Source of the DNA: Escherichia virus fEg-Eco19
Sequence record: NC_073314.1
Direction: 5' to 3' (one strand)
DNA: 45,805 bases
A program made the translations under genes and the position numbers. The notes below the pieces were generated by a model. It was not told where the DNA came from. It searched no databases and worked only from the letters and a program-made list of their open reading frames with translations. Shown here piece after piece: positions 40,425 to 45,805 of this stretch; position 1 is the stretch's first letter; each line of letters starts with the position of its first letter.

Positions 40425-40925
40425 TTATTCTTCTTCGAAATACTTGTTCTTGATTGCTGTCAGGCGTTCCAGGTACTCGGCCAGGTCTTCGTCTTTAATC
40501 GCGGCAATCTTCATCTTCTTACCGGTGAACTCTTCCAGCAGTTCATCAGAATCGTCGCACGCGGCATCGCTCGGACCTTCGTTAATTGCATCGTCGATAG
40601 CCTGAATCTGGTCACGAAGAGACTGGTAATCGACTTCTTCTTTCTCTTCTTCTGGTTCTGGCGTCGGCTCCTCTACTTTAGCTTTACGCGGCTTACGTTT
40701 TGGCTTCTCTTCTTCTGCCGGTTTAGTGTCGACGATGTCTTCACCTTCAACCGGGATTTCTTTTGTTTCTTCTTTAATACTTTCAGAGAACTGCTCAATT
40801 TTATGAGCGGCTACCGCGGCAGCCTCTTTGGCAGTAGTTGGCGCGAACTGTTTCGCACTATTCGCAGCAATCAGTTCATGTGCAACTACGAAACGTTCCA
40901 GTAATACTAAGAATTTCTCTAACAT
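40425..40925 (-). CDS. acidic coiled-coil protein, early gene
   Basis: 166 aa, Glu/Asp-rich with a central KPKRKPRKAK patch; driven by the strong promoter at ~40957-40985. Confidence 0.5.
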   Translation of the reverse strand: MLEKFLVLLERFVVAHELIAANSAKQFAPTTAKEAAAVAAHKIEQFSESIKEETKEIPVEGEDIVDTKPAEEEKPKRKPRKAKVEEPTPEPEEEKEEVDYQSLRDQIQAIDDAINEGPSDAACDDSDELLEEFTGKKMKIAAIKDEDLAEYLERLTAIKNKYFEEE

Positions 40926-41030
40926 TTGTTTCTCTCCTCTCGTTTGGTATGGGCTAACTATAATAGTGAACTATTCACATGTCAATGGGCTTTTCTAAAA
41001 TAATTAATATGGTACTATTCACATATCAAC
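40889..41030. repeat. direct repeat copy 1 (142 bp), divergent promoter/operator region
   Basis: Identical by eye to 41310..41451; contains the first 12 codons of ORF 40425..40925, TTGACA-N17-TATAGT (minus), an AATAG-N4-CTATT palindrome and a plus-strand TGgTACTAT extended -10. Confidence 0.7.
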
Positions 41031-41049: not shown

Positions 41050-41265
41050 ATGCAACCATCTGAACTAGGCATTCGTGTAGAACAACGCCGTAAAGAACTC
41101 GGCATCTCCCAGCGCCGTCTGGCGGTGCTGACCGGGGTTTCCCAGGGCGCAATTAACCAGCTGGCACTTGGGGTAACCCAGGACGTCCGCCCGGCAACGC
41201 TGTTTAAACTGGCGGAAGTGCTGGAGGTAGACGCCAAGTGGCTGGCGCTAGGTGAAGGGGCTTAA
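41050..41265 (+). CDS. Cro/CI-type (XRE family) HTH transcriptional regulator
   Basis: 71 aa; ISQRRLAVLTGVSQGAINQLALG is a canonical XRE HTH; only plus-strand gene in a minus-strand module; GGAG RBS. Confidence 0.7.
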   Translation: MQPSELGIRVEQRRKELGISQRRLAVLTGVSQGAINQLALGVTQDVRPATLFKLAEVLEVDAKWLALGEGA

Positions 41266-41309: not shown

Positions 41310-41451
41310 CGAAACGTTCCAGTAATACTAAGAATTTCTCTAACATTTGTTTCTCTCCTCTCGTTTGGTATGGGCTAACTATAATAGTGAACTATTCACA
41401 TGTCAATGGGCTTTTCTAAAATAATTAATATGGTACTATTCACATATCAAC
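41310..41451. repeat. direct repeat copy 2 (142 bp)
   Basis: Second copy of promoter/operator region plus a 12-codon 5' fragment of ORF 40425..40925; also contains the last three codons and stop of the primase gene. Confidence 0.7.
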
Positions 41452-44095: not shown

Positions 44096-44274
44096 TTCAC
44101 ATTCTCCTTAATCCATTCTTCAACTTTATTACGGTCAAATGTACCTGGTAAACGGCGACCCATAACCTTAATACAACAATCAGGGAATTTACCACTGCGC
44201 AACCAGTTATTAATTGTCTGACGTGTTACCCCAATACGCTCGGCTACTTCATTCTGTGTCATGTAATGCTGCAT
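44092..44274 (-). CDS. AlpA/excisionase-type HTH regulator
   Basis: Internal ATG with AGGAGA RBS; MTQNEVAERIGVTRQTINNWLRSGKFP matches AlpA-family HTH. Confidence 0.55.
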   Translation of the reverse strand: MQHYMTQNEVAERIGVTRQTINNWLRSGKFPDCCIKVMGRRLPGTFDRNKVEEWIKENVK

Positions 44275-44305
44275 TTTTATATCTCCTGTTTGTTTGGTGA
44301 AACCG

Positions 44306-44334
44306 AGTATAGGATAGCGGGAATGTAAAAGCAA
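44306..44334 (-). promoter_or_regulatory. sigma70-like promoter TTGCTT-N17-TATACT (leftward)
   Basis: Read from reverse complement; ~30 nt upstream of the AlpA-like ATG. Confidence 0.4.
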
Positions 44335-44371
44335 CCAATCCATGCTATATTTAATCTTTACAAAAAAGTTA

Positions 44372-44401
44372 TTGAAAGTTCTTGACACATGTTTGTATAA
44401 T
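44372..44401 (+). promoter_or_regulatory. sigma70-like promoter TTGAAA-N18-TATAAT (rightward)
   Basis: Read directly; divergent from the leftward promoter. Confidence 0.4.
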
Positions 44402-44407
44402 GGTTTT

Positions 44408-44629
44408 GGGACTTGTATATATTACGGAGTTGACGAACCCTCCCCGAGGGATTCGTCAACCCCTCCCAGACAGCTGAGATGCTTGTTTTAGGGTTTAAGG
44501 ATAAGTGTATCTAAATCTCATTTAAAGAAGTAACCCACTGAAATATCTACTGTTTCTTAATGTGCCGTAGATTCGCAACCGTAAAAATGTAACGATTATT
44601 GGGCAGGCCTTAAGGCCTGCCCTTTAGTT
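44408..44629 (+). ncRNA. candidate small non-coding RNA / structured leader
   Basis: Promoter at ~44372-44401, 14-bp imperfect hairpin at ~44429-44460, then strong terminator at ~44601-44629; no ORF over 10 codons. Confidence 0.25.
44601..44629 (+). terminator. rho-independent terminator
   Basis: GGGCAGGCC-ttaa-GGCCTGCCC perfect 9-bp stem followed by TTTAGTT. Confidence 0.6.
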
Positions 44630-44694
44630 ACCAAGTAATAAGAATAAAGGCACAACCCTACCTGAAGAATCACAACGGCAACGTAACTATTTTC

Positions 44695-44723
44695 TTGCAC
44701 ACCCCAACATAATAGGATACTAT
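44695..44723 (+). promoter_or_regulatory. sigma70-like promoter (TTGCAC-N17-TACTAT class) with AATAG-N4-CTATT palindrome
   Basis: TTGCACaccccaacataataggaTACTAT, ~35 nt upstream of ORF start. Confidence 0.45.
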
Positions 44724-44757
44724 TCACTTATCGAAACGAGACAGATGAGTGAGGGTT

Positions 44758-45039
44758 ATGTTTAGGAAGGGTCAGTTGGTTAAAGTAAAAGGGGGCGAAG
44801 TGATGGAAGAATTAATTTGTGTGAAAAGTAAATTAGTTGAGTTCAAACCGGGGATTTCATATTCCGGATATTCAACCTCTGATTACGATTATGTTATCGA
44901 TGAAACCGGAAGCGAATGGGTAGTTGACCAGTTCGGCGACGACGAATTCGGGGTATTCGATGGTGGGCTGAAAGCCTCATTCACAACGGCATCGAATCAT
45001 GATGCTCGTGCCGACGACTCTGAGGGAGGTTGCCGTTAA
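44758..45039 (+). CDS. hypothetical protein
   Basis: Internal ATG of track ORF 44749..45039. Confidence 0.4.
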   Translation: MFRKGQLVKVKGGEVMEELICVKSKLVEFKPGISYSGYSTSDYDYVIDETGSEWVVDQFGDDEFGVFDGGLKASFTTASNHDARADDSEGGCR

Positions 45040-45717: not shown

Positions 45718-45760
45718 TGTTATATTGTAACAATAGTTTGGGATTTTACTGAGTGACTTA

Positions 45761-45790
45761 CGCTGCTACCCAGCAGCGTATCATTTTTCT
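45761..45790 (+). terminator. rho-independent terminator
   Basis: CGCTGCT-accc-AGCAGCG followed by T-rich tract. Confidence 0.5.
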
Positions 45791-45805
45791 CATTTTTGTT
45801 CTATT

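Follow-up and report, generated by a model that had tools for sequence, protein, structure and literature searches.

Does the intergenic region in which the two arms of this phage genome diverge specify an RNA product in its own right, or only a leader for the gene that follows? The question was raised by a prediction made from the letters of the window, by which we mean the whole 45,805-nt stretch analysed (Escherichia virus fEg-Eco19, NC_073314.1). The source genome is a Kagunavirus (Guernseyvirinae). A 481-nt query around the finding shows 95–97.5% identity to phages UTI-CM001, 590B, Bas71 and fBC-Eco01, and 388 phage records match parts of it.

Genomic context

The gap, put at about 480 bp in the original prediction, runs from 44275 to 44757 (about 483 nt), and divides a leftward replication arm from a rightward arm of lysis and structural genes. 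The following genes define the two arms.

44274–44092, minus strand: HTH_17 regulator gene, start codon at 44274, left border of the gap
43611–41440, minus strand: helicase-primase gene (AAA_25, PHROG 3228)
44758–45039, plus strand: first rightward ORF (ATG at 44758; 93 aa, no assigned function), head of the rightward arm

Two ORFs without assigned function (orf96 and orf42) lie between the HTH_17 and helicase-primase genes. In the annotation of Bas71, the rightward arm consists of small ORFs followed by holin, endolysin, terminase, head, tail and tailspike genes. An unannotated 64-aa ORF in Salmonella phage SE2 (locus L003, 1812–2006) is a homologue of the first rightward gene of the window, and because it lies inside the apparent 1-kb gap of SE2, the non-coding part of that gap is only about 590 nt.

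Promoters of the intergenic region

Three promoters and one conserved sequence block were located in the gap.

44306–44334, minus strand: PL, leftward promoter TTGCTT-N17-TATACT, read from the sequence
44372–44401, plus strand: PR, rightward sigma-70-type promoter TTGAAA-N18-TATAAT, 11 of 12 consensus matches
44664–44694, plus strand: block upstream of P2, GAAGAATCACAACGGCAACGTAACTA, common to all Kagunavirus module types
44695–44723, plus strand: P2, promoter TTGCAC-N17-TACTAT, a repeated phage motif

PL is predicted to serve the HTH_17, orf96, orf42 and helicase-primase genes. Its −10 element (AGTATA on the plus strand) is invariant in all relatives, and the SE2 equivalent reads TTGATT-N17-TATACT. 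Since PL stands back to back with PR, the leftward and rightward transcripts would not overlap.

PR is present as predicted. Only four sites on the two strands of the whole window, PR included, reach 11 of 12 matches or more, where shuffled sequences give an expectation of 0.48. Transcription from PR is predicted to start near G44408. A promoter occupies the same relative place in all six types of 5′ module described below, with counterparts reading TTGACA-N17-TAAGGT or TAAGTT, TTGACT-N17-TAAGCT and TTGACA-N16-TAAAAT.

The second, downstream promoter of the original prediction corresponds to P2, which lies 70 nt behind the terminator and serves the next gene. The P2 motif has 11 copies at two or fewer mismatches. 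Its −10 element is overlapped by the palindrome AATAG-N4-CTATT (44711–44724), of which the window contains eight copies (at 85, 10642, 21038, 34013, 38499, 40962, 41383 and 44711) against an expected 0.04. The palindrome overlaps the −10 element of P2-type promoters (TTGCAC-N17-TACTAT), and three of the sites read TTGACA-N17-TATAGT on the opposite strand. It is absent from PR and PL.

The palindrome is probably a common operator for a phage HTH protein. PR, which has no operator-like palindrome, is therefore probably unregulated, and this suggests a PR that would be constitutive (a property deduced from the missing palindrome) beside P2-type promoters that share one operator. A terminator between PR and P2, it suggests further, would shield the regulated unit from constitutive read-through. 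Shielding of this kind would be a role in cis for the block, and is compatible with a role in trans for the released RNA. The paper on fBC-Eco01 named the repeated P2-type motif a phage-RNA-polymerase promoter; the Bas71 genome annotation contains no polymerase gene that would fit this reading.

Predicted RNA and terminator

The unit that would be transcribed from PR has the following parts.

44408–44632, plus strand: predicted non-coding transcript of about 225 nt, with a fold, no conserved ORF and no Rfam family
44429–44460, plus strand: 5′ hairpin, 14 pairs with one bulge and a CCC loop
44601–44622, plus strand: terminator hairpin GGGCAGGCC-UUAA-GGCCUGCCC, a perfect stem of 9 pairs, 8 being G-C, with a 4-nt loop
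44623–44629, plus strand: imperfect U tract UUUAGUU (5 U in 7), invariant in relatives

Secondary-structure prediction gave the 225-nt RNA a folding energy of −72.6 kcal/mol (z = −4.7 versus shuffles), in agreement with the structured region proposed from the letters alone. The 14-bp imperfect hairpin of that proposal was recovered with 14 pairs and a single bulged base; GGGA, the first four bases of the RNA, pairs with UCCC around it, and unrelated hairpins occupy its place in relatives. The stretch described as AT-rich (44461–44600) contains 36% GC, compared with 50% for the window. Within it, 44563–44598 is mostly unpaired in the predicted fold.

A perfect 9-bp stem and a strong terminator had been predicted. 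The stem is indeed perfect, with a folding energy of −19.6 kcal/mol, and the hairpin passes a terminator pattern scan and scores +21.8 with our implementation of the d'Aubenton-Carafa formula. The claim of strength fared less well: the U tract reads only TTTAGTT, and this imperfection makes the terminator weaker than proposed. Among relatives, the hairpin shows a compensatory C-G to U-A change (7 relatives) and an A-U to G-U change (locus L014). Hfq-dependent trans-acting sRNAs of enterobacteria end in a terminator with a long uninterrupted poly-U tail. Such a tail is absent here, the UUUAGUU sequence being invariant in relatives.

Modular organization in related phages

The region was gathered from 40 loci for comparison. 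The layout of promoter, hairpin, GC hairpin and P2 recurs in related phages, and the region proved to be modular: 5′ modules of at least six kinds and 3′ modules of three kinds are arranged alike in every relative examined. The common order is PL, PR, a 5′ domain with hairpins, a middle part with ACTGAT at its end, a 3′ module, AAACGAAAGAATCACAACGGCAACGTAAC, P2 and the first gene.

5′ module A: this window
5′ modules B1 to B4: K1ind1 and others
5′ module C: Jerseyviruses such as SE2
5′ module D: Snoke
5′ module E: fPoEco01
5′ module F: K1ind2
3′ module 3′-1: this window, K1ind1 and most Jerseyviruses
3′ module 3′-2: Snoke, with GGTGCCTTCGGCACC
3′ module 3′-3: fPoEco01, BEU33 and K1ind2, with GGGTGGGCTAACGCCCACCC within a longer stem

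The sigma-70-type promoter and the hairpins differ from one 5′ module to the next. The 3′ modules start with TGCCGTA(G/A), and carry a GC-rich tetraloop hairpin. Module 3′-2 passed only a lenient terminator scan and scored −49 with the formula used above, and module 3′-3 was missed by the terminator scan and scored negative. Both are thus poor terminators, and what the modules keep in common is the GC hairpin rather than efficient termination.

The 5′ and 3′ modules combine freely. The same type of HTH gene adjoins 5′ types A, D and E, and in BEU33 a B-type 5′ module is joined to the 3′-3 module. The BEU33 locus (L032, 739–935) consists of a B-type 5′ module and 3′-3, then a D-type fragment comprising the promoter −10 element and 5′ hairpin, and then P2. 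At the sequence level, this composite control region is direct evidence for module shuffling. A (TCAC)n microsatellite lies just upstream of the 3′-2 hairpin, with n = 3 in Snoke (L006, 1795–1812) and n = 6 in Golestan (L033).

The 5′ domains of eight relatives folded with z values from −1.0 to −7.1 (−2.4 or below in six of the eight). The four B subtypes and type C have their lower stems in common, and carry five unrelated apical hairpins. A structure of seven helices and 33 pairs was tested for covariation across 26 distinct aligned sequences of types B and C. On the plus strand, 98.7% of the tested pair cells can pair, compared with 91.0% for the same pairs read on the minus strand and 35–49% when the partners are slid by 1–3 columns; the tested structure came from the same, closely related sequences, and independent covariation events are few. 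Changes on both sides were observed for two pairs, 41/92 (G-C to A-U, with U-A as a third form in BEU33) and 257/264 in the terminator (C-G to U-A). Depending on the subtype, helix Ha is closed at its top by G-C, A-U or U-A, and five sites vary as A-U/G-U or U-A/U-G. Taken as they stand, the pairing data point to a plus-strand RNA rather than a DNA cruciform.

The conserved 3′ block and its natural loss

The 3′-1 module forms a conserved block that extends beyond the predicted transcript.

44538–44688, plus strand: conserved 3′ block (module 3′-1), comprising TGCCGTAGATTCGCAACCGTAAAAATGTAACGATTA at 44563–44598, the terminator and about 65 nt beyond it

The block is 90.1% identical to that of Salmonella phage SE2 and 94.3% identical to that of K1ind1. 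It is the best conserved segment of the neighbourhood, the adjoining HTH gene being only 78–80% identical, and 275 phage records hold it at 80% coverage or more. The 36 bases at 44563–44598 are invariant except for one indel in an A run and one variant in LSPA1. They exceed what a terminator needs, and fit a segment for pairing or protein binding beside a terminator, as found in many sRNAs. As modelled, this invariant single-stranded stretch is likely to be the working part of the RNA, for pairing or for protein binding. Conservation continues for about 65 nt past the hairpin (TTTAGTTACCAAGTAATAAGAATAAAGGCACAAC), which makes a simple promoter-to-terminator gene insufficient as an explanation.

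ER5 lacks the whole 3′-1 block, with TGCCGTAG, the hairpin and everything from there to GTAACTGA; an 8-nt micro-repeat, GTA(A/T)CTGA, contains the joint. A query spanning the joint is matched in one piece at 90% identity or more by about 75 records, including SETP3, SB3 and STP03, and in two pieces by block-bearing phages. We read the absence of the block as a deletion between the micro-repeats. No convincing terminator was found in ER5 from PR to the first gene. The original prediction had set an independent RNA against a mere leader of the downstream gene, and in the roughly 75 Jerseyviruses that have no terminator block, PR consequently reads straight towards the first gene, as a leader promoter would.

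Jerseyviruses, those without the block included, carry a second unit downstream with the same two motifs (TGCCGAAAGATTC, a GC hairpin and AAGAATAGAAAGGCAC). It lies within the leader of the next promoter, and no U residues follow its hairpin. Alignment of the first and second units gave z = 5.3, a value that overstates their similarity because the alignment was anchored on the shared motifs. Judged from the natural deletions, the 3′ block is dispensable, at least where the second unit is present.

A MITE-like insertion was considered for the block, which is flanked in Jerseyviruses by the 8-nt repeats GTA(A/T)CTGA, but rejected, as TGCCGT and ACGGCA do not stand at symmetric ends. Several Jerseyvirus records, NC_073201 (dunkel), NC_073180 (templet), MT074482 (horsemountain), MT074484 (celemicas) and MT074473 (blauehaus), start in the block or within about 150 nt of it. 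These record starts are probably the result of re-opening at a common start; a physical end is the alternative.

Coding potential, RNA families and targets

The longest ORF had been given as about 10 codons. ATG-initiated ORFs of 11 and 10 codons agree with this estimate; a 23-codon TTG frame is also present, which the estimate had missed. The TTG frame begins where transcription is predicted to start, and no ribosome-binding site precedes it or either of the ATG ORFs in the transcript. The ATG of the 10-codon ORF, at 44560, is AAG or frame-shifted in relatives, and single-base indels occur within the most conserved stretch. In comparison among relatives, no conserved ORF was found in the predicted transcript.

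Minus-strand CDSs for hypothetical proteins are annotated here in Bas71 (L002, 1579–1680 and 1768–1947), Snoke (L006, 1631–1738) and hz69 (L037, 117–395). Their frames and lengths vary, so they are likely spurious. A small protein gene missed on one strand or the other could be argued from these annotations, from a 43-codon minus-strand ORF (44727–44596) and from the 10-codon ORF at 44560. It is extremely improbable, given that the minus-strand ORF encodes 43 aa in the window and 59 aa in the near-identical Bas71, that indels interrupt the invariant block and the 44560 ATG is lost in relatives, and that there is no Shine–Dalgarno sequence.

The proposed covariance-model scan matched no family: with Rfam 15, none reached its gathering score for the window, SE2, Snoke or K1ind2 versions, and permissive E-values brought up only noise caused by the terminator. 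The best sub-threshold match for the window, sbrA (24.3 bits against a threshold of 45), covered the terminator only. ARAGORN found no tRNA or tmRNA. A similarity search of 5,426 E. coli genomes detected no homologue or prophage copy, and no second copy of the unit was found in the window. The search for a phage target of the invariant stretch returned a best run of 27–28, compared with 24–35 for shuffled queries. For the whole RNA against 80 translation-start regions of Bas71, the best energy was −44.3 kcal/mol, within the shuffled range of −38 to −51.

Some resemblances to known elements were considered and rejected. For the RfaH ops element (non-template strand GGCGGTAGnnTG), the conserved motif GTGCCGTAGATT has C rather than G at position 4, and GTGCCGTAG, which resembles the ops core GGCGGTAG, was dismissed on the same position; a G4C change in ops abolishes RfaH recruitment (PMC5995543). 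Inspection of the region by eye gave no convincing match to lambda nut boxA or boxB. The K1ind2 hairpin shares a CCCCGC/GCGGGG stem with the type I-E CRISPR repeat. The flanks and loop of the hairpin differ from the repeat and the other modules are dissimilar to it, so a CRISPR-repeat mimic was discarded and the likeness treated as chance.

The literature searched on Guernseyvirinae, Jerseyvirus and Kagunavirus yielded no description of the RNA. At the matching spot, the fBC-Eco01 record and paper give only a predicted promoter and terminator. The sole Kagunavirus RNA-seq study found gives gene-level data (vB_Eco_K1B4, PMC12645636).

Comparison with known systems

In logic and position, the closest analogue is the lambda PR′–tR′ transcript. 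Lambda 6S RNA is transcribed from the constitutive late promoter PR′ to tR′, and in Stx phages, the short transcript between PR′ and tR′ is StxS, a trans-acting sRNA that binds Hfq (PMC7547250). As in those phages, a terminator lies within about 200 nt of a promoter that seems to be unregulated, the unit lies upstream of the lysis and structural genes with PR in the position of lambda PR′, and the product is a short non-coding RNA (a predicted one here), which for StxS acts in trans.

The differences are considerable. No Q antiterminator or qut site was found here, and no member of an antiterminator family was recognised among the ten flanking proteins or in the Bas71 annotation, a weak test in view of the many small ORFs without function. 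With P2 70 nt behind the terminator and further P2-type promoters beyond, the late arm is independent of read-through. The phage is virulent, its U tail is poor whereas StxS binds Hfq, and there is no sequence similarity.

Three other systems have only single features in common with this unit. Lambda oop RNA (77 nt) has its own promoter and terminator beside the replication genes, and is antisense to cII. The unit described here is likewise a small promoter-to-terminator unit adjoining the replication region of an enterobacterial phage, but its RNA overlaps no gene and stands back to back with a leftward promoter, not opposite to it. The T7 early leader, which carries RNase III sites, has long irregular hairpins between a strong host-type early promoter and the first early gene. 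Such a promoter and such hairpins precede the first gene here also; T7 is not known to have a terminator or second promoter right after the hairpin. HK022 put is a defined stem-loop pair that acts on RNA polymerase. The likeness is a structured RNA right after an early promoter and before a terminator, and the differences are the high diversity of the 5′ modules and the missing sign of antitermination.

Interpretation of the unit

We hypothesize that early transcription of the region yields a short non-coding RNA of about 225 nt that ends at the terminator, heads the rightward arm and is released as a discrete RNA in this phage, a reading to which we assign a probability of roughly 0.45. The broader statement, that the region contains a non-coding, structured RNA element transcribed from PR on the plus strand, is likely. 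Host RNA polymerase would start at PR, at about 44408, and produce a strongly folded RNA, in which a 5′ hairpin domain and a middle domain would precede an invariant stretch (44563–44600) that is mostly unpaired. Most polymerases would halt at the hairpin at 44601–44622 and its UUUAGUU tail, freeing an RNA of about 220–225 nt, and P2 would serve the downstream genes. We infer both this termination and accumulation of the RNA, and, more tentatively, any activity in trans. The transcript would be of the same kind as lambda 6S and StxS, resembling a by-product that can itself be functional; that it acts in trans is doubtful.

The claim of an RNA product in its own right thus stands in part. On its side, the unit is non-coding, has its own promoter conserved in position, is structured on the plus strand, and ends in a hairpin that scores as a terminator. 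On the other side are the conservation for some 65 nt past the terminator, the poor terminators of modules 3′-2 and 3′-3, the loss of the terminator block in about 75 Jerseyviruses, and the outcome of the target searches, in which no trans target was found in the phage.

A tentative alternative, and a less likely one, is a purely cis-acting leader or attenuator, in which PR would be the early promoter of the rightward operon, the folded region its 5′ leader, and the short RNA functionless. Such a leader might, like the early leader of T7, serve as a processing or stabilising element for RNase III or RNase E; its hairpin would do no more than damp the read-through that reaches the operator-controlled P2 unit, or insulate that unit from it. 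This would account for ER5, SETP3 and about 75 other Jerseyviruses without the terminator block, which have no good terminator before the first gene, for the low terminator scores of modules 3′-2 and 3′-3, and for the second unit of Jerseyviruses, which lies in the next promoter's leader and has no U residues behind its hairpin. In types B and C, the 5′ domain forms a rod of about 100 nt, a hairpin broken by internal loops, and T7 RNase III sites have this shape. A plain attenuator, however, needs no 36 invariant bases upstream of its hairpin across two host genera; the hairpin of the window does score as a terminator, and P2 directly behind it makes the genes independent of PR. Read-through by a terminator-resistant polymerase into the lysis and structural genes, directed in cis by an RNA like HK022 put, would fit the order of promoter, structured RNA and terminator at the head of a 30-kb arm, the sub-optimal terminator, and annotations that list no antiterminator protein. 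It is very improbable, as the many internal P2-type promoters leave the arm without need of read-through, and the 5′ modules are too diverse for a single polymerase-binding fold.

An element that functions as DNA (an origin of replication, a site for packaging or clustered binding sites for regulators, with PR providing transcriptional activation) is improbable. It is suggested by the adjoining helicase-primase operon, the AT-rich stretch and inverted repeats, the conservation on either side of the hairpin, the fourfold occurrence of GTAAC/GTTAC in 160 nt, the pairing of TGCCGT with ACGGCA, and the several GenBank Jerseyvirus records that begin inside the block. An origin should be coupled to its primase, but the window and K1ind1/SE2 share the block with primase N-termini only about 21% identical, and the window and Snoke differ in 3′ module with primase N-termini 98% identical. 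The block is deleted in about 75 natural isolates, and polymorphic sites stay paired via G-U on the plus strand only. The uncoupling from the primase, the natural loss and the plus-strand G-U pairing together argue against an essential origin or packaging site. In headful packaging phages, the pac site is usually in or near the small terminase gene, which here lies far from the block. The block may possibly hold regulator-binding sites.

Beyond the discrete early RNA in this window, we consider it unlikely, in a wider form, that the loci represent a previously unrecognised Guernseyvirinae family of modular early RNAs, with 5′ hairpin modules and 3′ modules of seed plus hairpin swapped as cassettes, that act in trans on host mRNAs or on an RNA-binding protein or defence component common to E. 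coli and Salmonella. Such a family would explain why the 3′ block is conserved above its neighbour genes although some lineages can do without it.

Jerseyviruses and Kagunaviruses are among the phages most often isolated for biocontrol of Salmonella and E. coli, and Kagunavirus CM001, 97.5% identical to the window here, serves as a synthetic-biology chassis. Their main control region contains a conserved non-coding unit in which no record annotates an RNA and on which several annotation pipelines put spurious minus-strand ORFs. An RNA made from it would appear among the earliest transcripts after infection, as a candidate for regulating the host or the timing of the phage. If the RNA is only a leader, it would still set the start and attenuation point of early rightward transcription, which matters for payload engineering. 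The presence or absence of the block and the module swaps provide natural variants for testing.

Other features of the genome

Behind the DUF551 gene, a non-coding stretch (45725–45805) is 85% conserved to Jerseyviruses, and contains a hairpin (45759–45780) followed by T runs.

The commonest 8-mers of the genome are AACGGCAA and ACGGCAAC, with 14 and 15 copies on the plus strand and 5 and 3 on the minus strand, respectively (about 0.7 expected per strand); an example lies at 44674–44682. The plus-strand bias persists within minus-strand genes, and could be caused by codon usage or by a skewed signal.

A perfect 142-nt direct repeat occurs at 40889–41030 and 41310–41451 (spacing 421), its copies flanking a Cro/CI-type HTH_3 gene (41050–41265). 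Each copy contains two promoter/operator motifs and the 5′ end of the minus-strand ORF 40425–40925. In fBC-Eco01, only 18 nt separate the HTH gene from the helicase stop codon, so the window has its second copy either from an additional duplication or from faulty assembly.
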